DNA from: Escherichia virus TH32
Strand: one strand, 5' to 3'
Sequence record: MT446405.1
Length of the DNA stretch: 64,000 nt
In this document: positions 2,253 to 36,614 of the stretch, one piece after another
Layout of the letters: each line of letters begins with the position of its first letter
Position numbering within the stretch: the first letter of the stretch is position 1
The notes under the pieces: model-generated
What the model was told of the DNA's origin: nothing
Database searches by the model: none
The model's input: only the letters and a program-made list of their open reading frames with translations
Position numbers and translations under genes: made by a program

Positions 2253-3392
2253 TTAAATACCAGTCATACGGACGACTGCGAACGGACGCTTGAGCAGAAC
2301 GCCTGCTGTTGCGTTTGCGTAGTCTTCAACGTAGCTCTTAGCACGCTTTTCAACGCCCAGAGTCATGAACTTGGTTTGAACCAGCTGACTGAATACGGAA
2401 CCATCATCGCTTGAACCATCGATTGAGGAATCGATGTGATCGGCGTACAGGTATGCCACGTTCAAGAAAGTCGGGTCACTGCCAAGTGCGCCGTTGAGTT
2501 CCGGTGCAGATTTGATCTTCATCTTCGGATAAGTCTGGGTGATCCAGTCACGTACAGAAATACCGAAGTCAGTGGTGTTGGACAGCCAATCGATAGAGTT
2601 AGTCGGCAGCGCCAGAGTCATGTCAACTTTCTCTGGATCAATCTGGTCCTGAGAGTTCACACGAATTTGACGAACCATCAAACGGATGTCTGCAGTTACC
2701 TGTTGGAAAGTCGCAGTAGCCCAGCCGGAAGTGGTGTTGGAAGTCATCGCCGCTGGCAGGTTTGGATCATTCAGGAAGCCGAATGTGCGGTTGTTCCCGT
2801 TGTACCAGCCATAGAAGCCGATTGCGTTACGCATGATTTCCAGAGATACAGCAGCCTGCTGGCGCTTGGTTTCTGCGGAGTTCAGACGCATCGCAGACGC
2901 GCGGCCTTCTTCCAGCATACCAACTGCCATGCCCATTTCGCCACGAACGATAGAACGACGTTCAAAGTTTACGTTCCAGCTTGCCAGAGGAATAGAGGTG
3001 AAATCACCATATTCGACTGCGGTGCCAGCTGGTTCAACGATGCCCTGAACGATTTCTGCATCTTCCCACTGACCAACGGTATCAATACCAACCAGCTCGT
3101 CGATTTTACGAGCAGCGGTCATGATTTTGACGAAGCCAGGCAACCACTGCTGCAGGAACTGCAACGGGGTCGGGATTGACGGAGTGGTCTGCGGCGCAGT
3201 AAACGCGGCATCACCTACGCGGAAAGCGCCTGCACGGTTTAAGTGCTCAATCTGATCACGCACAATCGCGGAATCAAACACAATACCGATACGAGCAAGC
3301 TGGGAAACAGCCGCGTCGGTGACGGATTGCATATCAAAAGGTCGCACCTTGCTCGCTGGGAGGCGAGAGTGTGTTTGGCTAATGCGAGTCAT
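2253..3392 (-). CDS. major capsid protein (putative)
   Basis: 379 aa, size and position (terL-portal-morphogenesis-scaffold-X-capsid order); no motif verified. Confidence 0.5.
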
Positions 3393-3406
3393 TATTCACC
3401 TGCCTA

Positions 3407-4024
3407 TTAACGAGTCAATTGTACAATGGTATAAGTGGAAGACTGGACGCTTGGGCCGGAAAGGGCAATAGCAGTCGGGTCAATCACGATACCGCCTGGA
3501 ATGGCAACCATGCCAGTTGGCAGTGAGCCAGTATAGGCGATAATTGCACCGATAGGCAAGTTGTTCGGGTTGTTACCGCTGGAAATGCCTTTAGGTACAT
3601 AAGCGAGCAGGTCGCCGTAGTTCAGCGTCTGCGGACTGGTGCTTGGGTTGAATACTTCAACTACGAGGCCCGTGCACATATCGTAGAACTCGCCTTCGCT
3701 ATATTGAGGCAGAACCATGCTGGCACCCAAAGGACCAGTAGAGTTGCCATACAGAGCGTAACGCTTGCTGTTGCCAAGGATGCCATAGTAATTGGTGCCG
3801 CCCAGTTCAACTTCAAAGTCCTGCGCGCCCAAGGTTTTGGTCTGGCCAGTACCCATTAATGACACATCAGCCTTAAAACCAAACACACGGCTGATGGCGT
3901 TTACGTTTGCACCGTCGTTGGCGCTAACGATTCGGCCTGGCTTCCCACGCTGTGGGCCGTCGCGAACGATGTCGCCAGGAAAGCCAGTTGTATATTGACG
4001 GCCTACACTAGTTTGGAAAGTCAT
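3407..4024 (-). CDS. Gly/Ser-rich capsid-associated protein (possible decoration protein)
   Basis: Start moved to Met at 4024 preceded by AAGGGGA RBS; lies between scaffold and capsid genes. Confidence 0.3.
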   Translation of the reverse strand: MTFQTSVGRQYTTGFPGDIVRDGPQRGKPGRIVSANDGANVNAISRVFGFKADVSLMGTGQTKTLGAQDFEVELGGTNYYGILGNSKRYALYGNSTGPLGASMVLPQYSEGEFYDMCTGLVVEVFNPSTSPQTLNYGDLLAYVPKGISSGNNPNNLPIGAIIAYTGSLPTGMVAIPGGIVIDPTAIALSGPSVQSSTYTIVQLTR

Positions 4025-4026
4025 GT

Positions 4027-5448
4027 TTATTCCCCTTTCAACCAAGCTTCAAATGCTTCGTCAGTTGCTGCAGAATCCGCAGCGGCCTTTTGTTTTGCGA
4101 CTACACGCTGTTTTTGACCGTGCTCAACGCCGCGCAGATAATTATCCACCACGTCAAACTCAGCCCCATCAACGCACTTCAAGCCTAACTTTTTAGCGCC
4201 ATATTTCGCTACGGACTTGGAGTCCATAGTTGCATGATCAAAGGCACCAACAACTTTAGACAGGCGCTGGTAGAGGCTATTCTTACGAGCAGAATCAGCG
4301 TAGAAAGCAGCAACTGCTGAATCAGATGCCATTGAGTGTTCCCCTTTTGCTGGACCTGGCGACGCTTTCGCCGCTTTTGTCGGTTTGTCATCTTTTTCGA
4401 CCGAAGCCCCCTTTACGTTGCTGTTTTGCAGGCCGCTAACCACATCTTCAGCTTTGTCGCAAGGTGATACATCTTCAGCCTTGACTTCAACTTCTTCTTC
4501 GTCTTTGACTTCGGCTTCAACTTCTTCTTCATCACCTACCGCGCCACCTTTCAGTTTTGCAATAAGTGCTTCGATTTGGCTGATCAATTGCGGAAGTTCG
4601 CCGCCAGCGTGAGATTCAGCTTCAACTTCAAACTTCTCTTCACCTTCTGGGGTTTCTTCTGCTTCTGCCTTGACTTCTGGATCAACCATTACTTCTTCAC
4701 GATTTTCGGTTGAGTCCTTCTCTTCTGCTTTCACTTCAACTTCATCCTGATGAGCAGCTTCAGTACTCTCTTCGTTCAGAAATTGTTCGAGCGCAGGAAT
4801 CAGTGATTTCAGCTGTTCAACAGCATTATCACGCGCTTTACCTTTTAACGGTTTTGGCATGTCTAAATCCTCGTTGGATGGTGTTACAGTCGTCAAACAA
4901 AGATGGTCAAAGCAACGACCATCCAGCACCCGTGCACCTGGTACTCGACCAACGTCCACGAGAGCAATGTGGTTGCCGCGAAGAGTTGTCTGCACCACTT
5001 CATACGGCTGCCCGTCAAACTCTCCAGACTGTATGATGAATTCACAGTCATAGCCCAAAGACAAGTCAACCTTTCCAGAATCAATGGCCTTCTTAAGACG
5101 ACGGCTGAACACTTTAAGGTCGCCGCGCATCCATGGCTTGTCATAATAAACATTGCCAGTCAGAACGCCATCAACTCCATACTCTTCGGGTGCTGTGTTA
5201 TCCTCATCACCTTCAAATCCAGAAAGCATTTCGTGATTGTCGATGAAAGGGATATTTTTGAATGAATCTATCGCTTCGGGGTCTTTCACCGCTGACTCAG
5301 GGCGATAGACTTTTACGATGCGATTCGGATCACCATCAAGACCAACTTGACCAGCAGAATAATCAAAAATGCCAAATGACGAAATTGGACAACCCATAAT
5401 CGTCAAGAATCCATTTTTGTCAATTTCGCGTGCCGTTTGCATTCGCAT
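4027..5448 (-). CDS. scaffolding protein (possibly fused to prohead protease-like N-domain)
   Basis: 473 aa with long acidic Glu/Val/Ala/Lys-rich central stretch (EEEVEAEVKDEEEVEVKAED...), GAGGGTGG RBS; position between portal and capsid genes. Confidence 0.45.
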   Translation of the reverse strand: MRMQTAREIDKNGFLTIMGCPISSFGIFDYSAGQVGLDGDPNRIVKVYRPESAVKDPEAIDSFKNIPFIDNHEMLSGFEGDEDNTAPEEYGVDGVLTGNVYYDKPWMRGDLKVFSRRLKKAIDSGKVDLSLGYDCEFIIQSGEFDGQPYEVVQTTLRGNHIALVDVGRVPGARVLDGRCFDHLCLTTVTPSNEDLDMPKPLKGKARDNAVEQLKSLIPALEQFLNEESTEAAHQDEVEVKAEEKDSTENREEVMVDPEVKAEAEETPEGEEKFEVEAESHAGGELPQLISQIEALIAKLKGGAVGDEEEVEAEVKDEEEVEVKAEDVSPCDKAEDVVSGLQNSNVKGASVEKDDKPTKAAKASPGPAKGEHSMASDSAVAAFYADSARKNSLYQRLSKVVGAFDHATMDSKSVAKYGAKKLGLKCVDGAEFDVVDNYLRGVEHGQKQRVVAKQKAAADSAATDEAFEAWLKGE

Positions 5449-5471
5449 CCACCCTCAAATAAGTATTGTGT

Positions 5472-5500
5472 ATTATATCTAATGAAAAAAACTTAGGCAA
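5472..5500 (-). promoter_or_regulatory. sigma70-like promoter for scaffold/capsid genes
   Basis: Minus strand TTGCCT-N17-TATAAT about 25 nt upstream of start at 5448. Confidence 0.4.
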
Positions 5501-5558
5501 ACAATAATTATGGTTTGAATATGTATAACAACCGATATAGCCGCGCCTTTATTAGTGT

Positions 5559-5830
5559 GATACGGATGATACGGATAAAATGAGGCGTATTTTTATCCGT
5601 ATCGGTGTATAAGCCGCGCTATCACTGGTGTGCTACGGATGATACGGATGATACGGATACTTTTCATATATAAGAGTTTATAAAAAAATAAAATTAAATT
5701 AGATATATAATTTTAAATTAATTTATTTGAATTCCTATATAGTACTGCGGCAACGCGTATCATCCGTATCATCCGTAAGATTCTTTTGAAAACAACAACT
5801 TACTTGATACGGATGATACGTCATTATACG
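5559..5830. repeat. iteron cluster flanking AT-rich core (copy 1)
   Basis: GATACGGATGATACGG-type repeats in both orientations at 5559-5577, 5634-5660, 5756-5779, 5806-5820 around a >85% AT core at 5660-5745. Confidence 0.7.
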
Positions 5831-6011
5831 TATAAAACTCGCAGCAATCCTTTGCCGATGAATTCAGTGAATATTAAATAGCACTCCTGCCACTAAAACG
5901 CCAATCAACATCGAGTCATAAACAGCCCATTTCCAAGAAAGCAAAGAGTTGCAATTAATATTTCGCACTTTAACATAACGTGACTGAATAATCTTTTGCA
6001 TAACTTCCTCT

Positions 6012-6932
6012 TTAGTTCAGCTTAATTGCGGTGATCTGTCCGTAAACGGTAGATGTCAACGCGTCGGTGCACTGATAGTTTAAATACACATTACCAGGCG
6101 CGGCAAGAGTAATTACTTTTGTTGGGATGTTGCCGCCGAAGCGACCTGCAGCCCGAATGCCAGCTGACATGGCAAATGCATCATCCGTAATATCTGAATT
6201 GCTTGTTGACAATTTGACTGTAATTCCGGTATTCGCTTGAACGCCTGCTGTCGCGACAGTCAACTGACTTGCTGTTACAAGCCATTTCCCTGCAGGAAGG
6301 TTTAAGGTTGCCAGATTGACCAAAGTTGTTGGAGGATTGCTGACGCTATTAGTGGCATTCTGGACGGTACTTGCTGCTGCATTAAGCACACCAGACCCAT
6401 CAATTGATAGAGTTGTACCGACCTTTACGCCGCCTAAAGTAGATGCTGAGGCAATCGGCAATGAGTATTGGGTGACGCTGATTGTACCATCACCTGCTAC
6501 GCTTATTCCGGTGCCTATTTTGACGCCACCAAGAACGGAAGCTGTTGCCGCTGGTAACGTGTATTGGTTGCCGCTGGTTTTCACAACTTTGACTGCGACA
6601 GCGTTTTTCGACCCTCCAGACTCCATACCTATGATCACTGCTTCACCAAAAGCAATGGTGATTGTTGATGCAGTCAAGCCAGTTTGAACGTCTGTGATGT
6701 TCATCTTAGGCACAGACAATGTCAGGTTAGGCTTGCTGGTCGAATCGCCATCATTGCCAATCATAAAGAATTGACCTACTGAGTTATACCCTGATGCAAG
6801 CGGCGGGCTCAGTGGAACAATCAAGTTTTTATCAGAAGTGAATTCTGAGACAATTGCCAAGCCATTAGCATACACCGCAGGCAAGACTGGAGTTTGTCCA
6901 GATAGAGGGAATGTGTTGATTGGTATCGTCAT
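6012..6932 (-). CDS. fibre-like repeat protein (head fibre/decoration or receptor-binding candidate)
   Basis: Internal duplicated motif ASVLGGVKIGTGISVAGDGTISV / ASTLGGVKVGTTLSIDGSGVLNA typical of phage fibre repeats; start set to Met at 6932 with GAGGT RBS. Confidence 0.4.
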   Translation of the reverse strand: MTIPINTFPLSGQTPVLPAVYANGLAIVSEFTSDKNLIVPLSPPLASGYNSVGQFFMIGNDGDSTSKPNLTLSVPKMNITDVQTGLTASTITIAFGEAVIIGMESGGSKNAVAVKVVKTSGNQYTLPAATASVLGGVKIGTGISVAGDGTISVTQYSLPIASASTLGGVKVGTTLSIDGSGVLNAAASTVQNATNSVSNPPTTLVNLATLNLPAGKWLVTASQLTVATAGVQANTGITVKLSTSNSDITDDAFAMSAGIRAAGRFGGNIPTKVITLAAPGNVYLNYQCTDALTSTVYGQITAIKLN

Positions 6933-6939
6933 AATGACC

Positions 6940-7791
6940 TCAGATAATTGGTATTTTTCTGCACTTGCAGTGTATTGCCCATCCAGGAGGACCGATGTCA
7001 CCCTTTTTGAACTTAAGTTCTCCACCTACTTCCCATAAGCGTTTGTCATCAAGCTTGAATCTCATGCCGTCGACGTGCTCATGTGATATTCGCGGCTCTT
7101 TGCCTGCTCCTGAATGCGCCCACTCAAATTCCTCAACGCCATTCTGTCGCATCCTTTCATCACTTAATACGCAATAAAGTTTGCTCGTTTGGTCTTTGGC
7201 GATAAGGTCTACGCGTTTTGCAGAGAATTGTTTTACATTCCTTAGTGCCGCCTGAATGCCGGATGTGCCTTGCTGCGCTGGGTCTGGCGAAGTCAGCGAA
7301 AGCATCACCGCTTCGTACACCCTGTTGTGAATATCCTCGCCAACCTTAGTCACTAGAGTCGTGTTGAACGTCTCGCTTGTTTTAAGAGTGTTCTCAACGA
7401 ATTTATTATATGTGGCTTTTGGCGCTTCTATTCCTGCAGATTTAAGACTTGCGAATGTAGCAGAAGTCGCACCCTTTTCAACTGACTTGATGAAATCTGC
7501 GGCAATCTTTGACCCAACACGGGCGAATGCTTTTGCCCATTTCAGTTGAAGGCGCTTCATCAAGGTCTGAAAAGTTGAATCAGCAGAGTCTTGCGCAAAG
7601 AACTTTTTCACCTGCTTCTTTTCAAGCCACTCAGCAATGCCTGCCTGATAGTCATCAATCATCGCATAGCAAAGACCTTTCATCTCACGACGATAGGCCA
7701 TCGCAATAGCGTTGGATGGGATTATCGGACTGCCGCGCCCGATTCTATCGGGTGAGCGGCGTTCGCGTTTTTTCGAAGCTTTAAAAGCCAT
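6940..7791 (-). CDS. head morphogenesis / minor head protein (putative)
   Basis: Basic N-terminus, position directly downstream of portal gene; start chosen at Met abutting portal stop. Confidence 0.35.
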   Translation of the reverse strand: MAFKASKKRERRSPDRIGRGSPIIPSNAIAMAYRREMKGLCYAMIDDYQAGIAEWLEKKQVKKFFAQDSADSTFQTLMKRLQLKWAKAFARVGSKIAADFIKSVEKGATSATFASLKSAGIEAPKATYNKFVENTLKTSETFNTTLVTKVGEDIHNRVYEAVMLSLTSPDPAQQGTSGIQAALRNVKQFSAKRVDLIAKDQTSKLYCVLSDERMRQNGVEEFEWAHSGAGKEPRISHEHVDGMRFKLDDKRLWEVGGELKFKKGDIGPPGWAIHCKCRKIPII

Positions 7792-10986: not shown

Positions 10987-12447
10987 TTAAAGGTTAGAGA
11001 AGAAGCCGGATGCTGCAACGATTGGTTTCATCAATGCCATGATTGCTGCGTCCGCTTTGTTAGGTGATTTGACTCCACGCTTTGCCATATCCTTTTTGGA
11101 TTCAACTTTGAACTTGCCAAGAACAGACGTATCTTTGCGCGGCGCTGACATCTCAAAAAGAAACGTCTCAATCTCTTCAGTAGTCCAAGCTGGAATCCCA
11201 AGTTCCGGTATACCATCGGTGTCGATTGAAATCAATTCATCAGTCGGATATACGGCTTGCCCAGTTGCATATTCGTATGTCTTTCTGAATCTCTCTGCAA
11301 TTTCAGTCCACTTTTGCGCTTTTATGTTTGCGAAATGGTCTTTATTGAGTATTTCAACGTGTGGTAGCTCAAGAAAAACGTCATCAGGATCATCAACAGA
11401 CCCTTGCGCGTTGAACGCATTAAATTCGATTCTTGGAAATGATGGATTTTCATGTATTGCATACTCGTTTAGTTCATCAAATTTTGAACCAGCAAAAGCG
11501 CCGACACCGATGGCGTCATAAGTTATAGAAGCGCCAAATGTAAGCGCATCTTTCCAAACTCCGCTTGCCGATTTCAACAATTCATCTTCCAGACCTTCCC
11601 ACGTCTTGATGCCGCGCAATACGTTTCCTGTAACGAATGCAGTGGCGTTAAGGTCGTCGCCATCGTCCGCTACGTCAAAGCCTATACGGTTAGACCCTGA
11701 CAAACTCCAGCCCAGCGTAGGGTGTTTGTGGAGATTAAGAGCGGCCTTAACGAATGCACGGTTGATTACAGATTTATCGCCGCCAGTCTTCGGCACGCCG
11801 CCATAAACGTGCTCTGCCTTTTTCGGGTCGCGCTCGTACATGCCTGCGATAACATCCAGCATTGTTTGCGACAAGAATGGGTTGTCTTGCCAGTTTATCT
11901 TTTTAACTATGGCATTCTTCGGCGGTCGCATAACAAAGTTTTGGTAGACGAAATCGGCCTCTTCATCAGGGTTAAAGATGATCCATATTTCTGACCCTTC
12001 TTTACGGATTGTCGGCTCAATAATGTCCCACTGTTCTTCAGTAAGTGCGTGCGCTTCTTCCAGCCAAAGAACATCAACACCTTCCGTTGATTTAATTTCA
12101 TCAACGTTACGTGCGATACCGTAAAATAGAAATTCAGATTTAGTTCTTTTATGCTCGATAGAGTTCTTTAATAAATTGAACTCATCTTTAAAATCAGAAA
12201 TCTCTATTTTATCTTTTAATAGAGTATATACAGATTCAGAAATCTTGTTCTGGAATTGTCGAACGCAAAGGAATTTTAATTTGAAGTTTGCCGCCAAATA
12301 AATAGCAAAACCAGCGGCATCATGCGATTTGGAAGATGCACGACCGCCGTATATTACTTTGTATCGCGCTTTTGTCTTCCAGACTTCTTTTAAAGCAGGA
12401 TTCAACTGGTACATGACTTTCCAATTATGTGTTAATATTTTATTCAT
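10987..12447 (-). CDS. terL: terminase large subunit
   Basis: N-terminal Walker A-like VIYGGRASSKSHD, terminase-like ATPase plus C-terminal nuclease-sized domain; 486 aa. Confidence 0.85.
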   Translation of the reverse strand: MNKILTHNWKVMYQLNPALKEVWKTKARYKVIYGGRASSKSHDAAGFAIYLAANFKLKFLCVRQFQNKISESVYTLLKDKIEISDFKDEFNLLKNSIEHKRTKSEFLFYGIARNVDEIKSTEGVDVLWLEEAHALTEEQWDIIEPTIRKEGSEIWIIFNPDEEADFVYQNFVMRPPKNAIVKKINWQDNPFLSQTMLDVIAGMYERDPKKAEHVYGGVPKTGGDKSVINRAFVKAALNLHKHPTLGWSLSGSNRIGFDVADDGDDLNATAFVTGNVLRGIKTWEGLEDELLKSASGVWKDALTFGASITYDAIGVGAFAGSKFDELNEYAIHENPSFPRIEFNAFNAQGSVDDPDDVFLELPHVEILNKDHFANIKAQKWTEIAERFRKTYEYATGQAVYPTDELISIDTDGIPELGIPAWTTEEIETFLFEMSAPRKDTSVLGKFKVESKKDMAKRGVKSPNKADAAIMALMKPIVAASGFFSNL

Positions 12448-16885: not shown

Positions 16886-17281
16886 ATGATCATCGATATT
16901 GAAAAGGCGCTCAAGCGCGAATTGACGCCAGGTGCGACCCCTGGCGAGGAAGCCTACTACCGACCAAAAGCGCAGCGCACCAATGAGATTCCTGTTGTTA
17001 AGCGGACAGTGAATAAGAACGGTCAGCGGTCTAGGATGCGCTCTATCCGGTCCGGTGAAAGGCTGAAAACGATTCGCCAGTGTCTACAACGTCTCGAAAT
17101 CATGGGTTGTCGCGCTTATATCGACCCTGATGGAAAGGTTCTGGTGAGAATTGGCAATAGTACACAACTACAAGACGGATTGCCATGCGGTGAATCCAGA
17201 CCTATTACCAAGACCGACCGTGTGGCTACGGGTCGCGAGATTGAGGAAAGTTGGTTAGGTGCTTTCTTATTAAAATATTGA
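16886..17281 (+). CDS. hypothetical protein
   Basis: Internal Met of ORF 16814..17281; basic protein. Confidence 0.4.
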   Translation: MIIDIEKALKRELTPGATPGEEAYYRPKAQRTNEIPVVKRTVNKNGQRSRMRSIRSGERLKTIRQCLQRLEIMGCRAYIDPDGKVLVRIGNSTQLQDGLPCGESRPITKTDRVATGREIEESWLGAFLLKY

Positions 17282-17288
17282 GGTTGAA

Positions 17289-17537
17289 ATGAATCAAAAT
17301 GAATCAGTAGCATTCTTACAATGGCTGGAAGGTGTGGTGGAGTATTACGCTCCAAAAGACCGTTTCATCTTTCAAGGCAAAAGCTTCAAGCGCAAAGGTC
17401 AAGCACAGAAAGCAGCGCGTAAGTACTGGAAGGAAGTTTATTCAGAGTTCTTTCAGCAGATGGGCATTATCGGTGCGACCGTATCCGGCGACCCAGCACA
17501 GTTGGTATCGATTGATGAATCCAATCGTTACAATTAA
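17289..17537 (+). CDS. hypothetical protein
   Basis: 82 aa ORF. Confidence 0.4.
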   Translation: MNQNESVAFLQWLEGVVEYYAPKDRFIFQGKSFKRKGQAQKAARKYWKEVYSEFFQQMGIIGATVSGDPAQLVSIDESNRYN

Positions 17538-17552
17538 TAAACCGATTTGAAT

Positions 17553-17575
17553 GCCGCGCCATGCGGCTTTATTAT
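17553..17575 (+). terminator. terminator-like hairpin
   Basis: GCCGC-gccat-GCGGC followed by TTTATTAT. Confidence 0.4.
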
Positions 17576-17612
17576 AGTTATTGTTAATCACCCAAATATT
17601 AAAGGTAATGAT

Positions 17613-17993
17613 ATGTCAAATAAAAATGATTCTATGAGTCACACATATACTAAAGGCAGCGGCATTGCTTTTGGTTCCAGCATCAAAATTGACGCTCCAC
17701 CTTGCTATTCTGATGGATTGGAAGTTGGCAACCGTGACTTGACATGGGTTTTACGTCGCCAATCCGATTTAGAAGAGAAGTTGGAAAATATTGAGCGTTC
17801 TCTCGAAAGTTTGCGCGACCAGCTTTTTGGTTGTTCTGAAGATGATTCTAAATCTCCAGAGTATTGCGTTAATCATGGTTTGATTGATAATATGCTCGCC
17901 ACAACCGCTCGATCAATTGGTAAAACTGTGTCCATTGAGTCGTTGATCAGCCAGATTGCTGATGGATTTGGTGATGCCCATAAGAGTGAATAG
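17613..17993 (+). CDS. hypothetical protein
   Basis: Internal Met with AAAGG RBS. Confidence 0.4.
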   Translation: MSNKNDSMSHTYTKGSGIAFGSSIKIDAPPCYSDGLEVGNRDLTWVLRRQSDLEEKLENIERSLESLRDQLFGCSEDDSKSPEYCVNHGLIDNMLATTARSIGKTVSIESLISQIADGFGDAHKSE

Positions 17994-18023
17994 TGGGTGG
18001 ATGTTGCTTTAACCGTGAATCGT

Positions 18024-18050
18024 GGGTCGCTGTGGCGGCCCTTTCTTTTG
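18024..18050 (+). terminator. rho-independent terminator
   Basis: GGGTCGC-tgtg-GCGGCCC followed by TTTCTTTTG. Confidence 0.55.
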
Positions 18051-18054
18051 CCTG

Positions 18055-18640
18055 CCGCGCAGGAGTGTACTGCAAATTTCCTGTGGGTACAAAATAGTAC
18101 GGTACTGTCCAGGACTTTTTCTTTGAAAAGTTAGTGGACCAAATGTGTAGTATTTTGATTAGTGTACCGCAAATTCCATCAAGTACCAAAACGCACCAAA
18201 AGACCCATGCCATAAAAACCACACGAACGCAATAATCAATCGACGTTACAGTTTCCAGCGTTACAATTCGAAAGCGAATGATTCGACGCATAATAATATG
18301 AAGCATAATGATTCGAAAGCAAATGATTGCGTGTAGGATAATATCGGTGGGGATTATTCTAGATGCATGTAATTTCGCATGCGTACTATTTTCGGACGAA
18401 GGGTCGGCATATTCCTCGTTTTAGTTCGGAACGAAGGGAAAGTTTTGCGCCTTTATAAAACAACGACTTACGCGACCCGCCCTAACGGTCCGATATAGGT
18501 GTCTATATAAAACAAGGACTTACGCGATGTTCTCCATTTAACGTAATACCTGTTATGCGAACTAAGACGCATCTCGAAGAAGATTATGCGACGACGAAGG
18601 GAAGGATAAAGGAGTTTTCGCGTAGGAGCGCATCGAGATA
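18055..18640. repeat. repeat-rich non-coding region
   Basis: Approx. 600 bp without credible ORF; repeat families GTAC(T/C)GCAAATT(T)CC, AATGATTCGAAAGC, CGAAGGGA and TATAAAACAA(C/G)GACTTACGCGA. Confidence 0.6.
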
Positions 18641-18645
18641 GGGAC

Positions 18646-18671
18646 GAAGAAAAGCCGCGACTAAGCGCGGC
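18646..18671 (-). terminator. rho-independent terminator (minus strand)
   Basis: Minus-strand GCCGCG-cttagt-CGCGGC followed by UUUUCUUC, 20 nt after stop of 18692..18982. Confidence 0.55.
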
Positions 18672-18691
18672 CTATTAGTAACGGAAGGGTA

Positions 18692-18982
18692 TTATAAGGA
18701 GACGATTTTAAAATAAGTTACTTCGCCGCCGAGTTGCGGTACAGCGATATATTCGCCGCCGATTTCGGTAATCGTATAAACGAAGCCGTTAATCGTTACG
18801 CGATAGGATACGATGTCCTCGTCGCGATACTTGTAAAGGTCGAGGAAGTTGATCGGCTCATAAATAGACTCGATAATCGCGTCTACGTTAGAGAGATAAA
18901 CGCTCTCTAAGGTTTCGCCAAATACGTTAGAGTTTTCGGAAGTTTCGACGCGAGCGGAACGGATAGCGGCTAAAGTAATCAT
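18692..18982 (-). CDS. small acidic protein, paralog family A/C
   Basis: 96 aa, AGGAGA RBS; paralogous to 19617..19901. Confidence 0.6.
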   Translation of the reverse strand: MITLAAIRSARVETSENSNVFGETLESVYLSNVDAIIESIYEPINFLDLYKYRDEDIVSYRVTINGFVYTITEIGGEYIAVPQLGGEVTYFKIVSL

Positions 18983-19049
18983 AATAATCTCCTAGTTGGT
19001 CGGGCGGGTAGCGACCTATTCGCTACCTCATCCCCTCTCGATATAAAAC

Positions 19050-19078
19050 ATTATAGTCTTAGTGTACGAAGAAGTAAA
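19050..19078 (-). promoter_or_regulatory. sigma70-like promoter
   Basis: Minus strand TTTACT-N17-TATAAT. Confidence 0.5.
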
Positions 19079-19090
19079 GCACTTTTTTCG

Positions 19091-19393
19091 TTATTTTGCG
19101 ATAAAATATTTATAAGCTTTATCGCCTTCTACGTCGATATACTCGACGATAATTAATGCTTCGCCGCGAGGCGTAACCGTCTCGATAAGGGTAACGGCTT
19201 CGTCGTCGGTCTTCGCGAAGCGGATGGCGCTACGTTCGGCGTATTTAATTTCGTCGAAGGAAAGGCCGACGAAGGCGACGGCGCGCGCTTTAATAATGCT
19301 CGTTTCGAGTTCCGCGTTAACGGCAGCGATAAGAGAGCGAACGGTTAAGCGGTCTTCGTCGTAAGTAAGGATGGAAGAGATTAAAGTAGTCAT
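19091..19393 (-). CDS. small protein, distant member of the same family
   Basis: Start at Met 19393 with GGGAGC RBS. Confidence 0.5.
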   Translation of the reverse strand: MTTLISSILTYDEDRLTVRSLIAAVNAELETSIIKARAVAFVGLSFDEIKYAERSAIRFAKTDDEAVTLIETVTPRGEALIIVEYIDVEGDKAYKYFIAK

Positions 19394-19449
19394 AATAAAG
19401 CTCCCGATGCTAGTAGAAGGAAGGGCCATCGCCCGTCTCGATATAAACA

Positions 19450-19477
19450 AGTATACGCGAGTGTACGAAGAAGTAAA
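19450..19477 (-). promoter_or_regulatory. sigma70-like promoter
   Basis: Minus strand TTTACT-N16-TATACT. Confidence 0.5.
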
Positions 19478-19520
19478 GAAAAAGATAAAATAATTTATCG
19501 CATTTTTATCGAAAAAGTGC

Positions 19521-19549
19521 TTTACTTTTTTCTACACTATATTATAATG
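19521..19549 (+). promoter_or_regulatory. sigma70-like promoter (divergent partner)
   Basis: TTTACT-N17-TATAAT. Confidence 0.5.
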
Positions 19550-19616
19550 TACTCATATCGGGACGGGATGAGTTAACGAATAGGTCGTTAACGCCTCTCC
19601 CAACTAGGAGTTTAAA

Positions 19617-19901
19617 ATGGCTATTCTTAACGTTTCTTCTATCCGTAACGCCATCGTCGAGAACTACGGCGTAAAACAAAAATTATCCGAAGTCTACGCC
19701 GCGAACGTAGACCAAACTATCGAAGAGGGTGGGGTAACGGTCGCCGAGGCTTTTAAACTTTACGCGGCGTTACCGGAATCGGACCGCGAAGCCTTCGAAG
19801 TAAACGTTAACGGATACTTCTTCGAAGCGGTCGAAATCGGTAATATTTTACTCGTTATGGGCGAAGAAGAATTTGAGACCTTCTCCCTCGTCGAAGCGTA
19901 A
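19617..19901 (+). CDS. small acidic protein, paralog family A/C
   Basis: 94 aa, TAGGAG RBS; shares motifs with 18692..18982. Confidence 0.6.
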   Translation: MAILNVSSIRNAIVENYGVKQKLSEVYAANVDQTIEEGGVTVAEAFKLYAALPESDREAFEVNVNGYFFEAVEIGNILLVMGEEEFETFSLVEA

Positions 19902-19981
19902 GAGAGGATTTTTAGAGCGTCGTGCGCGGCGCTTTAATAAAATTCTTTCGCGCCTAGCGCCCTAACAAATAGGAGTTTATT

Positions 19982-20608
19982 ATGGTTAGCTTAAATCGCT
20001 TTTCTACTAGCGGCGACGTTATCGCAACTAAGACCGCCGACCTCGTTGCATTTTACAATGCAAATTCCGGTTCGAAGCCGATTAAAAAGTTCGCTGACCG
20101 CCGGACCGCCGAGACTCGCGTAATCGCGCTAATCGAGTCCTTAAACGCGCTCGATGAGCCGTCCAACGAATCGCCCATCCCAGACGCGAAGCCGCGCGAG
20201 GAAGTGTCCAGCGATGTAAAAACGCACAAGGCGCGTGCGGTCGTTAAAAAGGCCGAGCCGACCCAGGAAGAACTCGACGCGATGAGCGATGAAGAGTATG
20301 AAGCCTTCGTTAAGAGCGGCTTAAACGATAGTGCAAATTGCGTAGTGCAAAATGGAACTCCTTCCCATCGCCGTTCGAATAGCGAAGGTATTGCAAAAAG
20401 TTGGGATAATAAGGAAGTGGCGCAAAAGCGTCTTACCCGTAACGGCGTTATGGTCGAGGGTGTAGGCGAGTTCAAATCGGTCCGCGTAGCATTCGCCGCG
20501 CTGGGCTTACCGGATAGCAAACACATTCGCTTCCGTATGAAGCTTAAGGAAGCTGGGCGCTTGAACTTCGAGTTCGGCAACAAGTCCTACACATTCCAGA
20601 TTATCTAA
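19982..20608 (+). CDS. hypothetical protein
   Basis: 208 aa, TAGGAG RBS; CpG-rich coding; contains two copies of the ATAGTGCAAAT motif in frame. Confidence 0.5.
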   Translation: MVSLNRFSTSGDVIATKTADLVAFYNANSGSKPIKKFADRRTAETRVIALIESLNALDEPSNESPIPDAKPREEVSSDVKTHKARAVVKKAEPTQEELDAMSDEEYEAFVKSGLNDSANCVVQNGTPSHRRSNSEGIAKSWDNKEVAQKRLTRNGVMVEGVGEFKSVRVAFAALGLPDSKHIRFRMKLKEAGRLNFEFGNKSYTFQII

Positions 20609-20615
20609 TCGAATG

Positions 20616-20640
20616 GCGGCCCTTCGGGGTCGCTTTTCAT
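20616..20640 (+). terminator. rho-independent terminator
   Basis: GCGGCCC-ttcg-GGGTCGC followed by TTTTCAT. Confidence 0.55.
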
Positions 20641-20983
20641 AGTGCAAATTGGTGGCTTATGAATACGCTTATTCTCATCGCTACGTTGTCCATCGGAAGT
20701 GGTCGCACCTTATCCCTTTACGACCATAGTGCAAATTGCGCTTACCCTACGCGCGTTGCGGCAATAGTTAATAGTGCAAATCGAATGCTATTCGAAACTT
20801 GTTGGCGGGTCGATAACGAGAAAGGGCGCATCGTCTTAGGTTATAGTGCGAATCTGCTGGTGGAGTCGTTCGATTGGACGGTTGAAGGTCGTAAATTGTT
20901 ACGTAAGGTGACTAAAAGATGACTTATAATAATACACTTTCTAACGCGTTTATGGTTGTAACCTTCCCCGTCGTATTACCGAT

Positions 20984-21023
20984 GGCCCTAGAAGTGGAGA
21001 AAATGTGTTCTAGGGCCGTTTTA
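20984..21023 (+). terminator. long hairpin, terminator-like
   Basis: 10 bp inverted repeat GGCCCTAGAA / TTCTAGGGCC with 14 nt loop followed by GTTTTA. Confidence 0.35.
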
Positions 21024-21036
21024 TAGTGCAAATTGG

Positions 21037-21509
21037 CTAGTGGCGGGAGAATTGCTCGCCTTCTTTGGCCGCCTCTCCGAAATCCTTGTAGAAATCGTCC
21101 ATGGAACGGCCCATTTTACTATTGCCGTTTTCATCAATCATCGTGATGCCGTAGATGATATTCAGTTCACGAATAGCATTAAGTTTGGCTGACGCCGCGA
21201 CTTCTGGATCACGCACAAGCTTGACCAAATTGTGAATTGCACCTTTTACGCTCCACAAATCCTTGAGTGGCATCTCTTCCATACGCTTTTTGAAGCGCAT
21301 TTTGTAGTATGGGTTGCGTTGCGCGCAAAGGATTCGCTGGCCAGTGTAGCTATCCGTTGCAACTTCCATTCCAAATACTAGTGCAAAAGCTGCGCGCATG
21401 TCATGGCCCTGAATAACAAGGTCAATGAACTCATCGAATAAAGCCTGATTGTGCTCTGCAAATCGCGGGTCTTCAAAGTCTTCAGGCATCGCTACATAAT
21501 CTTGACTCA
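21037..21509 (-). CDS. hypothetical protein
   Basis: Start at Met (MSQDY...) whose ATG lies inside an ATTTGCACTATG motif copy. Confidence 0.45.
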
Positions 21510-21738
21510 TAGTGCAAAATCCCATAGTGCAAATTAATAGTGTGAATTATACAATGGATGGACATTATATTCAAGTGCAGATTGATGTTCATTATGGCTA
21601 TAAACGTACACAAATCACAGTGCTGAATGGATAACGGACCGTGGTGCGTGGTGTACTGTTTGATACGTATAAAAGAAATCCATCCCTTTTGCCGCTTGTT
21701 ATGCAAATCAATGACTTAGCCGCTGCTGGCTGGTCGAA

Positions 21739-22011
21739 GCGTATCATGACGTATCATCCGTATTGCCGCAAGTCTTTGTTTTTACTTATATCTTACGGAT
21801 AATACGTTAAATATATAAATTAACATAAGTATGAGGATGTAGAAAAAAATTAATTTAAATGATTTTAAAATGGAGTTAATTAATTTTTCAAATTATATAT
21901 ATAACGATGCCCAGTTTTATCCGTATCATCCGTAAGATTAATGTACAAGCCAGGCGCGGCAAGGGCTGTACACTGATACGGATAAAAAACCATGACGTAT
22001 CATGACGTAAG
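21739..22011. repeat. iteron cluster flanking AT-rich core (copy 2)
   Basis: Same (C)GTATCATCCGTA-type repeats and AT-rich core (21800-21905) as at 5559-5830. Confidence 0.7.
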
Positions 22012-22270
22012 GGTGTACCAATTTGGAAAGGATGAATCCAGGAACGGCGCGGCCTGTAGCCATGATACGCTTAATTTTTAACCGTATTTTAGGCGTATCA
22101 AATGTGTTCAAACACCAAGTTTCACGACACTAAAATTTCAATCCATAGACAATTCCTAACAAACACCACGGACTAATAGATACGCCCTATAAAATATATT
22201 TCTAAATATTTCCGCACAATCAATAAATAAAACACAACCTCATAATCATTCCATCGCAAAACACGACCCA

Positions 22271-22298
22271 AACAACAAAAGGCCGCATAAAGCGACCC
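22271..22298 (-). terminator. rho-independent terminator (minus strand)
   Basis: Minus-strand GGGUCGC-uuuau-GCGGCC followed by UUUUGUUGUUU. Confidence 0.45.
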
Positions 22299-22348
22299 AT
22301 TGCACACATTCCATTCTTCAAAACACGTAAACAGTGTTCGTTTATTCA

Positions 22349-22885
22349 CTATATCTTAGGCATTAATCCCTTTTCAGTTCTCCTTTTTATTTCTTCTTTT
22401 ATCATTTTATTGGTGACTTTATAGCCAATCCTCTCCAATTCCAGCAGCACTTCGTTTTGGTATTTTTTTATCTTCACAATATCGACTGTATCCCTCCAAT
22501 AAGAAAATACCTTCTGAATTACTGCTTCATCCATTTTATATCTTGCTGTCGTCCTGTATTTCGATTTGAAGATATAATTGATTGCATCAGTCTTTAACCA
22601 TTCGCTTCTCAACTCAGGGTGATCATCCCAAAGAGCTATGGCAAACTCTTGCGGGCTTTTACATCTTTTTCTAAGCTCCTTTATGTAATCAGTTATGCTG
22701 GTTTTGTCACAAAAACGTTTGCGGCAAACTTTGCATTCTTCCTTGAGTAACCATTCAGCCTTATTACTTTGCGACGCTGATTCATTATCCCTTCTGTACC
22801 TGCCGCATATACTTATTCCTTCATTATCCAAGAAGTAATGCAAGTCTTTAGAATACTTAGCTTTACGCCAAAAGCCGCCCATCAA
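22349..22885 (-). CDS. Cys-rich hypothetical protein (zinc-finger-like)
   Basis: 178 aa with CGRY...CKVCRKRFC cysteine cluster. Confidence 0.4.
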   Translation of the reverse strand: MMGGFWRKAKYSKDLHYFLDNEGISICGRYRRDNESASQSNKAEWLLKEECKVCRKRFCDKTSITDYIKELRKRCKSPQEFAIALWDDHPELRSEWLKTDAINYIFKSKYRTTARYKMDEAVIQKVFSYWRDTVDIVKIKKYQNEVLLELERIGYKVTNKMIKEEIKRRTEKGLMPKI

Positions 22886-34430: not shown

Positions 34431-35614
34431 TGAACATTCCAGAATTTAATGATGAGCCAGTGATTCAGTTTAACGCGCAACAAATCGATGCCATCGAGAA
34501 GGCCGTTGCATGGTACAAGCGATTGCAGGACGGTAAAACGACGAAGCGTGTGTTTTTCATTGCTGGCTATGCAGGGACTGGTAAAACTTCTATTGCTCGC
34601 GAGATTGTGCGCCGCTGTGTCGGTGAGTACGGAGCTATCTATATTGCGCCGACCGGAAAGGCTGCAAGCCGATTAAAGCAAAAAGGCTGTCGTGGCGCTA
34701 AGACCCTTCACCAGTTCATCTATAACGTGCGCGGCGTAAATGACGACAATGAGCCAATCTTTTCGAGGAAGTCAAAGCTGGATGAAAGGCCGCACCTTGT
34801 TGTCCTCGATGAAGCGTCGATGGTTGGCGAGTGGGACACAGAGCGCCTTCTTGATCACCGCATCCCTGTGCTGGCATTAGGCGACATTGGACAAGTCCCT
34901 CCGGTAAAAGCCGCCGCCTACTTTACTGAAGATGCCGTTGACGTGCTGTTAACCGAAATCATGCGGCAAGGGAAAGAGTCCAATATAATCCGCGCCTCCT
35001 TCTTCGTGCGCCAAGGCAACCGCCTTCCTCCGCGTGAATACGATGACGTCAAAGTATTGGCAGAATCGCCGCGCGTTACTGCATTGAAGAAATTCATGGG
35101 CGAAGATGATCAAATTATTTGCTCCTATAATAGCACCAAAGATAAATGGAATTCATTATTACGGCAAGTGAGCGGACGTATAACGCCAATGCCAGGAATC
35201 GGCGAGAAAGTTATTTGCACCTTCAACCAGCACGGGCCAGGATTCTGTAATGGCGAGCAAGGGATTGTTATTAGCTATGAACCAGTGCCGGACTTTGAAA
35301 GGGATGAAGACGAGTCGAATGAAATAATGTATGTCAACTTGCGTTCATTAACTGATGGTAAAGATATAAAGGTGAAGATCAATCCTCTTTCCTTCTCTAC
35401 TGATCAGGAAGTGCGCAAAGAAGCGCAACGCGCTGTTGGCGGGATGGACTATGGCTATGTAATCACGGTGCACAAATCGCAAGGCAGCGAGTGGGACAAT
35501 GTGTGCGTGCTGGAAGAAATCTTGCGCGGCGTTCCGTACTCCAAGATGATGTACACCGCAATCACCCGCGCTAAGAAGAATCTGACCGTGTACCGTGATT
35601 TGAAAGCGCGTTAA
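34430..35614 (+). CDS. RecD/Dda-like superfamily 1 DNA helicase
   Basis: Walker A GYAGTGKTS, Walker B VVLDEASMV, motif VI VITVHKSQGSEWDNV. Confidence 0.85.
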   Translation: MNIPEFNDEPVIQFNAQQIDAIEKAVAWYKRLQDGKTTKRVFFIAGYAGTGKTSIAREIVRRCVGEYGAIYIAPTGKAASRLKQKGCRGAKTLHQFIYNVRGVNDDNEPIFSRKSKLDERPHLVVLDEASMVGEWDTERLLDHRIPVLALGDIGQVPPVKAAAYFTEDAVDVLLTEIMRQGKESNIIRASFFVRQGNRLPPREYDDVKVLAESPRVTALKKFMGEDDQIICSYNSTKDKWNSLLRQVSGRITPMPGIGEKVICTFNQHGPGFCNGEQGIVISYEPVPDFERDEDESNEIMYVNLRSLTDGKDIKVKINPLSFSTDQEVRKEAQRAVGGMDYGYVITVHKSQGSEWDNVCVLEEILRGVPYSKMMYTAITRAKKNLTVYRDLKAR

Positions 35615-35774
35615 TGTTGACGTAAATTTACGAAAAATAAAACTGAAAATCAGTTTAATTAAAGTGGCATTGCCGCCATAGTTTTTAGTTGCTACTGGCG
35701 GCGACTGAAGGCATAATTAAGTTATCCCAAACGGGGGAATATAAAATAAACTAATTTATTTAAGGACTGTGAAC

Positions 35775-36614
35775 ATGGCCGAAGCAATCAAAGTATTATC
35801 TAAAGAAGAAAAACAAGCAGCTGCAGCAGAACGTCGTCGCGTGGCTGAAGAGAAACGCCTGGCTAAAAAGAAAGAAGCCGAAGAAAAACGCCAGAAGCGT
35901 GAGCAGGAAAAACAAGCCAAGCGTGAAGAAGCTGCGCTGAAACGCAAGCAGGCTGCTGATGAGAAGGCTCAGAAGCGTGCTGAAGAAGCGGCTAAGAAAG
36001 CTAAAGAGCGTGCAGAAAAGGCTGCTGCTAAGAAAGCAGAGCGTGAAGCCGCTAAAGCAGCAAAAGAAATCGAAAAGGCAAAGGCTAAAGAAGAAGCCAA
36101 GCGCCTGAAAGCTGAACAAGCTGCTGCTAAGAAAGCAGAGCGTGATCAAGCCCGTGCTGCAGCGAAGGCCGAAAAAGAAAAGGCCAAAGAAGAAGCTAAA
36201 GCGAAACGCAAGGCAGAGCGTGAAGCTGCTAAGATTGCGGCGAAAGAAGCTGCAGAACAGCAGAAAGAACAGCGCAAGAAAGAAGCTGAAGAGCGTCGCA
36301 AAGCGATTGCAGAGCGTAAAGCCGCCAAGAAAGCTAACGGTCAGCGTCGCGCTAAAGCAACTCACTTTGTTTACACCGGAAACGGCCTGAGCCAGCCGCA
36401 AGAGCATTCCACCCGTGGACGCGTTCTGGCGGCGATCAAAGAAGGCGAAATCGGTCAGCCGCAGTCTATCGACGAGCTGGGTGAAAAAGTTAAAGATCAG
36501 CTGTTTGGCGCTTCCGTTCGCTCTTACCTGAGCAAGCTGGAAGAGATGGGCCACATCGAGTTCATCGATGTTGAATCCAATGACGATGCCGAAGACGGTG
36601 ATCAAGCGGAATAA
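35775..36614 (+). CDS. Lys/Ala/Glu-rich repeat protein with globular C-terminal domain
   Basis: About 190 aa of KEEAEEKRQKREQEKQAKREEAALKRKQ...-type low complexity, then a 90 aa non-repetitive tail; antisense ORF 35796..36605 judged an artefact. Confidence 0.6.
   Translation: MAEAIKVLSKEEKQAAAAERRRVAEEKRLAKKKEAEEKRQKREQEKQAKREEAALKRKQAADEKAQKRAEEAAKKAKERAEKAAAKKAEREAAKAAKEIEKAKAKEEAKRLKAEQAAAKKAERDQARAAAKAEKEKAKEEAKAKRKAEREAAKIAAKEAAEQQKEQRKKEAEERRKAIAERKAAKKANGQRRAKATHFVYTGNGLSQPQEHSTRGRVLAAIKEGEIGQPQSIDELGEKVKDQLFGASVRSYLSKLEEMGHIEFIDVESNDDAEDGDQAE

Follow-up and report, generated by a model that had tools for sequence, protein, structure and literature searches.

A conserved, repeat-rich spacer of Escherichia virus TH32 at the predicted inner edge of a long direct terminal repeat: a probable terminus-generating region

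The locus and its coding potential

Here, we have analysed a non-coding spacer of Escherichia virus TH32 (sequence record MT446405.1), within a stretch of 64,000 nucleotides that we refer to as "the window": the spacer is located between two convergent genes, it carries several families of short repeats and, as predicted by comparison with related phages, it contains an end of the virion chromosome, i.e. the inner edge of a direct terminal repeat (DTR) of approximately 3.7 kb, which an earlier note on this stretch had missed. A 2-kb query around the spacer matched 28 phage records at 90-96% identity, all of them from the genus Wifcevirus (E. coli/Shigella myoviruses of ~68 kb), among them WFC, WFH, ECML-117, FEC19, Mansfield, vB_Eco4M-7 and Bas98-101. 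Positions 17000-19999 of the window have been aligned with 18 relatives, which gives an alignment of 19 genomes; the records used most often are those of Mansfield (MK903282, of which the window is the reverse complement), Ro157lw (MH051335), WFC (MK373777) and WFH (MK373776).

The gap between the convergent genes is free of genes over 698 nt (17994-18691), in agreement with the non-coding stretch of about 600 bp that had been described from the sequence alone, and the terminators that had been said to bound it on both strands are found as hairpins at 18024-18041 (+ strand) and 18673-18652 (- strand), the same ones that are annotated in relatives. The features of the locus, in the order of their coordinates, are as follows:

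17613-17993, + strand: upstream flanking gene
18024-18049, + strand: intrinsic terminator of the gene at 17613-17993 (hairpin 18024-18041, followed by a T-run); counterpart annotated in WFC and WFH
18064 and 18161, + strand: AGTGTAC(T/C)GCAAATT, two copies; the first repeat family of the earlier note
18064-18078, + strand: distal AGTGTACYGCAAATT copy, on the unique side, 121-135 nt from the predicted terminus; identical in 16 of the 19 genomes
18090-18157: imperfect palindrome of 68 nt; its loop holds position 18118/18119, where the WFC record has its DTR edge
18147-18198, + strand: terminus-adjacent conserved element ATTTTGATTAGTGTACCGCAAATTCCATCAAGTACCAAAACGCACCA, just outside the predicted DTR; nearly invariant in the 19 Wifcevirus genomes
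18161-18175, + strand: proximal AGTGTACYGCAAATT copy, within the terminus-adjacent element (AGTGTAC at 18161-18167)
18188-18198: AAAACGCACCA, abutting the predicted DTR edge
18198/18199 (cgcacca/aaagaccc): inner DTR edge, placed from four relatives; one predicted physical end of the virion DNA ('right' in the Mansfield orientation)
18199-21871: predicted DTR, 3673 bp, with small early-type genes, sigma-70-like promoters and the small terminase gene
18257-18344, + strand: two tandem units of ~45 nt with AATGATT motifs (43-nt repeats at 18257 and 18302); second family
18382-18441, + strand: two 22-nt units that end in CGAAGGG, part of the third family; the copy at 18430-18438 is invariant in the 19 genomes
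18451-18527, + strand: 25-mer CT(T/A)TATAAAACAA(C/G)GACTTACGCGA, two copies starting at 18451 and 18503; fourth family
18593-18654, + strand: another two copies of GACGAAG(G/A), within purine-rich sequence
18652-18673, - strand: intrinsic terminator of the gene at 18692-18982, annotated in Mansfield, WFC and WFH; 18650-18669 is invariant
18692-18982, - strand: downstream flanking gene
21871/21872: the other predicted DTR edge ('left' end, position 1 of those records)

Seven candidate open reading frames (ORFs) occur in the gap, and none of them is intact in all 19 genomes, nor does any have the excess of changes at the third codon position that is seen in both flanking genes (28/27/47 and 32/24/59 changes at codon positions 1/2/3); by this codon-position test the gap contains no credible ORF, and the short conserved ORF that had been allowed for as another explanation of the sequence is not among the seven. 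We have rejected an ORF of 119 aa that spans the terminus on the - strand (17947-18306), since it is intact in just one of the 19 genomes. Most annotators call no gene in the spacer across the 28 records, and the tiny ORFs that are called here in the kaset, Mansfield and SP13 records are, judging from their sequences, unlikely to be real. In agreement with the earlier note, which had found no tRNA T-loop motif at this place, ARAGORN predicts no tRNA or tmRNA in the 64 kb of the window. Searches of PHROGs and Pfam with the neighbouring small proteins found no function.

An additional ORF of 210 nt is located between the 291-nt gene and the spacer in SP13 (record position 3191-3400), Ro157lw, ECML-117, FEC19 and vB_Eco4M-7; it is absent from the window (~18680-18692) and from most other relatives.

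The predicted terminus and the element next to it

The terminus has been placed in the window by homology to the records of relatives. The Mansfield record annotates a DTR of 3,673 bp, predicted by PhageTerm, the same value that is stated in the Mansfield paper (PMC6753283), and the DTR of Ro157lw has also been determined by PhageTerm (PMC6454146). The end-to-end comparison of those 71-72-kb records that include both copies of the repeat gives DTRs of 3,701 bp in WFH, 3,533 bp in Ro157lw and 3,899 bp in SP13, and the record ends of WFC, WFH, SP13 and Ro157lw are identical over 3.5-3.9 kb. The inner DTR edge is located at one homologous nucleotide in Mansfield and Ro157lw, where it comes from PhageTerm, and in WFH and SP13, where it comes from the record ends (...GGCATGGGTCTTT/TGGTGCG...); the corresponding position of the window is 18198/18199, with an uncertainty of +/-1 nt that an A-run introduces.

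Given this edge and the other edge at 21871/21872, the DTR of the window would therefore extend from 18199 to 21871, and the spacer would therefore consist of approximately 157 bp of unique DNA followed by the last 453 bp of the repeat; these 453 bp would also form the extreme end of the chromosome in virions. The membership of this genome among DTR phages rests on its 91-96% identity to the relatives; that the relatives package a unit-length genome with a DTR of ~3.7 kb has been shown, and by comparison of sequences the same arrangement is predicted for this genome.

The DTR and its length have already been published for the genus, and the edge is annotated in GenBank; the papers on the relatives that we have examined give the length of the repeat only, and the spacer, the terminus-adjacent motif and the in-register conservation in three genera, presented below, are undescribed there.

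A tblastn search with the small terminase, TerS, has retrieved further genera of the family Lindbergviridae, of which Kylevirus and Myosmarvirus have TerS proteins of 36-43% identity; their DTRs are of similar size, i.e. 3,603 bp in Pantoea phage Kyle (Kylevirus), obtained from the record ends, and 3,559 bp in Serratia phage MyoSmar (Myosmarvirus), obtained by PhageTerm. Read in the same orientation up to the edge, the sequence outside the repeat is GATTAGTGTACCGCAAATTCCATCAAGTACCAAAACGCACCA in Wifcevirus, AATTTAGTGTACGTGCCAATCCATTTTGTGTGAAATCGCACCA in MyoSmar and GATTAGTGTACTGTGAAATTGGACCAGGTACTAAATCGCGGTC in Kyle. Local alignment within +/-70 nt of the edges gives a score of 36 for the Wifcevirus-Kyle pair, against a null maximum of 30 in 2000 shuffles, and a score of 23 for the Wifcevirus-MyoSmar pair (P about 0.006); in both pairs, the independently determined DTR edges share one alignment column. 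The ~45 bp that lie just outside the DTR include the repeat GTACYGCAAATT of the earlier note, and the first repeat family thus belongs to an element that three genera share at 38-39 nt from the end. In MyoSmar, a second AGTGTAC copy is located 32 nt upstream of the proximal one. A homologous 45-nt unit (AATT.GAA.GC.AATGATT) is found in Kyle, with four AATGATT/AATCATT copies just inside the DTR edge; no such copies occur at the DTR edge of MyoSmar.

Beyond these genera, a sensitive blastn search with the spacer against 50,697 phage records found matches in Wifcevirus only, and none of 5,426 complete E. coli genomes contains a match to the spacer that would point to a host origin. An IMG/VR protein search with the neighbour of TerS returned the same genus only, and an IMG/VR scan with a degenerate terminus pattern returned the known relatives and two unrelated sequence families, which we have judged to be chance matches. 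The Pbunavirus relatives are described as terminally redundant and circularly permuted (PMC12345254), and therefore the exact-end DTR strategy is not universal in the family.

How long DTRs arise and are cut is described as an open question in the Ro157lw paper (PMC6454146, citing Casjens and Gilcrease 2009), and an element that is conserved across genera and keeps a constant distance of 38-39 nt to an end inferred from experiments offers a target for mutation in that context. There is also a practical side: most Wifcevirus records, including those of BASEL phages Bas98-Bas101, have been deposited as collapsed or circular, the vB_Eco4M-7 genome has been rebuilt from fragments obtained by polymerase chain reaction (PMC11074155), and the true ends must be known before the genomes of these phages can be rebooted and engineered; the phages grow fast and are candidates for therapeutic and diagnostic use.

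Conservation, repeats and the proposed role of the spacer

Within the genus, the nucleotide diversity of the spacer is 0.043, compared with 0.085-0.096 in the two genes upstream and 0.139, 0.069 and 0.210 in the three genes downstream: the flanking genes vary 2-5 times more than the spacer, which is under stronger constraint and keeps its length of 610 nt in nearly all of the 28 records. In the 19 genomes, the blocks 18090-18109, 18190-18209 (where the predicted cut site is located), 18450-18469 and 18530-18549 are invariant; one or two variable positions occur in each of 18110-18129, 18430-18449 and 18490-18509, and the most variable part of the spacer is 18330-18369.

The region at 18055-18640 contains 19 repeated 8-mers, against 4.5 +/- 3.1 in first-order Markov resamples, which places it in the top 5% of genome segments of 586 nt (32 of 635), although it is not the most repetitive of them. 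All the repeat families that had been listed from the sequence are present, but two of the descriptions are loose: the 14-mer AATGATTCGAAAGC, given as occurring twice, is found once in its exact form, with a second copy in a permuted register, and RACGAAGGGA, given as four copies, is found in two exact and two degenerate copies. The GACGAAGGG-like repeat has four copies in the region. The tandem units at 18257-18344 would lie 59-146 nt inside the DTR, and TRF gives an alternative reading of them with a 15-nt period repeated 3.5 times. The two copies of the 25-mer are spaced 52 nt start to start and are nearly invariant in the 19 genomes; no third copy is present in the 64 kb, even when 3 mismatches are allowed, and 100 shuffles gave none. 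Next to the predicted cut, GTAC occurs six times in the 136 nt of 18060-18195, against 0.28 expected, and six of the 20 copies of GTGTAC in the window are located in the two terminus spacers; both counts are post hoc.

The most repetitive stretch of the window is found elsewhere, at 35600-36600, where 586 nt hold as many as 111 repeated 8-mers and where exact 26-mers occur; its repeats are located inside an ORF of 281 aa (35769-36614, phrog_4765) and form tandem units that look rich in lysine.

The 68-nt palindrome folds as DNA with z = -4.0 in the window and with z = -1.55 in Mansfield: its stability here is due to two private substitutions, and it is absent from Kyle. The sequence is conserved, whereas the structure appears to be only weakly so. 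We have considered this palindrome as a T7-like priming hairpin and have not built on it, given how weakly it folds in Mansfield and its absence from Kyle.

Taking these observations together, we propose that the spacer is probably the cis-acting region where the termini of a long-DTR phage are generated, through recognition and cleavage by the terminase; the position of the terminus is well supported by the sequence comparison, and the role of each individual repeat is what we infer. On replicated concatemers, TerS and the large terminase, TerL, would recognise the conserved element of ~45 bp on the unique side (TTAGTGTAC, followed by ~20 nt and AAAWCGC), and the terminase would cut 38-39 nt downstream of AGTGTAC. 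The AATGATT units, 60-150 bp inside the repeat, would act as accessory protein-binding sites of variable number (one in Bas100, two in most genomes, and the four AATGATT/AATCATT copies of Kyle). As in other DTR phages, the repeat would have to be either duplicated or acquired from a neighbouring genome. Strong constraint also acts on the inner ~300 bp, where the CGAAGGG copies and the two copies of the 25-mer are located, and further packaging, end-protection or regulatory proteins could bind there. Of the three earlier suggestions, that of a protein-binding regulatory hub alone agrees with this proposal, and only insofar as the spacer holds a DTR edge and a predicted physical end of the virion DNA, a sense that had not been recognised in the note.

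Several points weigh against this proposal. In the WFC record the edge is shifted outward by 80 nt, to 18118/18119, which is still within the spacer. The edge of Serratia phage MTx (PhageTerm, 3,566 bp) is located 14 nt further in than that of MyoSmar, a member of the same genus, and the proximal motif of MTx is AGTGTCC, compared with AGTGTAC in MyoSmar; this offset (MTx 3566-3581) may be either an imprecision of PhageTerm or a real shift of the cut. The TerS of phage E217, a homologue of solved structure, has no appreciable DNA binding in vitro (review PMC9611059). The inner 300 bp fall outside the account given by the model, and the 25-mer and CGAAGGG families that are found there have no counterpart in Kyle; furthermore, one AATGATT unit is dispensable in Bas100, where a deletion of 45 bp removes exactly one unit. 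At the left edge, conservation across genera is either not significant or out of register, and the k-mers of 9-12 nt that are common to both DTR edges are at chance level, only the hexamer GTGTAC being enriched at both; therefore, a single recognition rule for both cuts is not evident. The enrichments of GTAC and GTGTAC were noticed after looking, and the terminus of this phage has been placed by homology only.

Among the known systems, the concatemer junction of T7 and T3, reportedly described by Dunn and Studier in 1983 and by Chung and Hinkle in 1990, is said to have repeat arrays that flank a terminal repeat of 160 bp; its likeness to the spacer reportedly includes exact ends, non-coding edges with short repeats, adjoining cis-acting sequences for cutting and an inverted repeat near one edge. 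In contrast, the predicted repeat here contains genes and has ~23 times the length, no relation exists between the repeat families, and the palindrome appears to be only weakly conserved as a structure. The cos site of lambda (cosQ-cosN-cosB) is a functional analogue only, being a specific cut site with accessory protein-binding elements on either side that is served by a TerS/TerL terminase: lambda has cohesive ends and no terminal repeat, the relation is limited to the class of the terminase, and no exact IHF consensus is found in the region here.

Of the other explanations, one is that the tandem units at 18257-18344 are promoters of a non-coding or antisense RNA that would be transcribed across 18345-18690 into the genes of the - strand. 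Each unit scores as a sigma-70-like promoter that reads into the repeat (9 of 12 positions, 18268-18297 and 18313-18342), the -10-like hexamer of the second unit keeps xATAAT in 18 of the 19 genomes, and the + strand is rich in purines downstream. These scores are, however, below those of the clear early promoters nearby; Bas100 does without one unit, the unit of Kyle, as read from the alignment, lacks a -10 hexamer at the right spacing, and no terminator is found on the + strand ahead of the antisense genes. The RNA itself fares no better: the Infernal/Rfam scan that had been suggested finds no family at the gathering score in the whole window, and only chance-level matches in the region at E up to 10 (the best one with 17 bits, against a gathering score of 40); the fold z-scores of 18345-18675 are -0.9 on the + strand and -2.0 on the - strand; and no compensatory pair occurs in the 19 genomes, a count of low power at ~4% divergence, with 8-15 pairs broken in some genome and with broken pairs outnumbering those that are kept by one-sided changes. 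The earlier suggestion of a structured non-coding RNA is not borne out by these results. The 45-nt units may have a promoter role, yet neither a downstream gene, nor a terminator, nor a conserved RNA structure accompanies them, and we regard such a transcription unit as unlikely.

Another explanation draws on the likeness to T5: the untranslated, repeat-rich end of the repeat could, once the early genes of the repeat are inside the cell, pause the entry of the DNA or bind host or phage proteins, i.e. it could be a region for stopping the injection or for handling the end. The geometry fits that of T5 repeat region 3, a candidate injection stop signal at the inner end of the left 10-kb terminal repeat (bioRxiv 10.1101/866236). 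Both regions are untranslated, dense in direct and inverted repeats and located mostly inside the terminal repeat, with an overrun into unique DNA (270 bp in T5, ~157 bp here), and in both the conservation exceeds that of the ORFs of the repeat (diversity of 0.043 versus 0.07-0.21 here). In addition, the repeat carries small genes with strong TTTACT-N16/17-TATAAT promoters, as expected for the genes that are expressed first, and the spacing of the 25-mer pair corresponds to about five helical turns. The differences are equally clear: T5 repeat region 3 measures 1.2 kb, compared with ~0.6 kb here; it has paired DnaA boxes in inverted repeats, whereas no match to the DnaA box TTWTNCACA is found in 18000-18700 even with one mismatch (1.2 expected), nor does the region contain an exact consensus for IHF or Fis; and the spacer has no sequence similarity to T5-like phages, its only match being to Wifcevirus. 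The resemblance is therefore architectural only, as the DnaA boxes and the sequence similarity are both missing. In T5, a siphovirus whose repeat measures 10 kb, DNA transfer in two steps has been demonstrated; the literature that we have examined contains no report of it for this family of myoviruses. Moreover, the part that is conserved across genera is in register with the cut site, which fits cleavage better than an arrest of entry. A role as an injection-stop or end-handling region appears decidedly improbable. In a further reading, the 450 bp inside the DTR would do more than direct the cut: being both the extreme end of the virion DNA and the last part of the repeat, they would form a T5-like end-handling module in a myovirus, for staged entry or for the protection of the entering end, with the 25-mer and CGAAGGG copies bound by a host protein or an early phage protein. 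This reading is more speculative again and would be quite surprising; if true, it would mean that two-step or regulated delivery of the genome is not confined to the T5 group.

We find it very hard to maintain that the spacer is an origin of replication, which had also been suggested, with its repeats as iterons: several families of direct repeats do occur in a conserved non-coding region, but there is neither a DnaA box nor a GATC cluster (no GATC is found in the region), no AT-rich core for unwinding is present (GC 0.39-0.45), each family has 2-4 copies at irregular spacing, and a far more origin-like architecture is located elsewhere in the genome, at 5560-5830 and 21740-21950, where cores of 12-15% GC are found with inverted arrays of an exact 13-mer. 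Just as improbable is a non-functional leftover between two terminators, its repeats having arisen by slippage or duplication, since the variable copy number of the 45-nt unit (one in Bas100) and the neighbouring indel that adds the 210-nt ORF in some relatives stand against a sequence in which variation is 2-5 times lower than in the genes beside it, whose length is kept in 28 records and part of which is conserved across genera.

The left terminus, the terminase genes and promoters

The predicted left edge at 21871/21872 is located in a non-coding region of ~800 bp (21540-22350), ~5 nt from the centre of a palindrome with arms of 22 nt (21845-21888) and a core of ~15% GC; this palindrome is nested in larger inverted repeats, and both of its sides are flanked by copies of CGTATCATCCGTA / TGATACGGATAAAA. 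A sigma-70-like promoter match on the - strand (21891-21862) spans the left cut. In Kyle, an analogous ATATCCGAA repeat is found on both sides of the left edge.

On the unique side of the left terminus, the similarity of WFH to the window stops beyond ~21945, where WFC, SP13 and Ro157lw stay aligned; judging from the sequence, this change beside the genome end looks like the replacement of a module.

The two terminase genes of the window are:

21040-21525, - strand: TerS, small terminase, 162 aa; matches E217 TerS (PDB 7UXE, E = 6e-34)
10990-12447, - strand: TerL, large terminase

The TerS gene is located inside the predicted DTR, ~350 nt from the left end and far from the TerL gene, and would therefore be present in two copies in each virion genome; it is preceded by two sigma-70-like promoters that match at 10 of 12 positions. 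Other strong promoters of the sigma-70-like type, with the pattern TTTACT-N16/17-TATA(A/C)T, are found inside the DTR at 19050-19078 (-), 19450-19477 (-) and 19521-19548 (+), and by reading the sequence of MyoSmar we find TTTACT-N17-TATAAT just inside its DTR edge, which suggests that the DTR may be an early region transcribed by the host polymerase.

A second non-coding region of ~560 bp (5449-6011, core 5560-5830) is located in the head-gene cluster, between the gene of the head protease (4030-5448) and the gene at 6015-7025. The left-terminus region has an inverted paralogue here (local alignment score of 79, against a shuffle maximum of 32), and six exact copies of CGTATCATCCGTA form inverted arrays around a core of 12% GC at 5560-5830; this architecture resembles that of an origin, and the region could be one; alternatively, the same DNA-binding protein could have a second site here.

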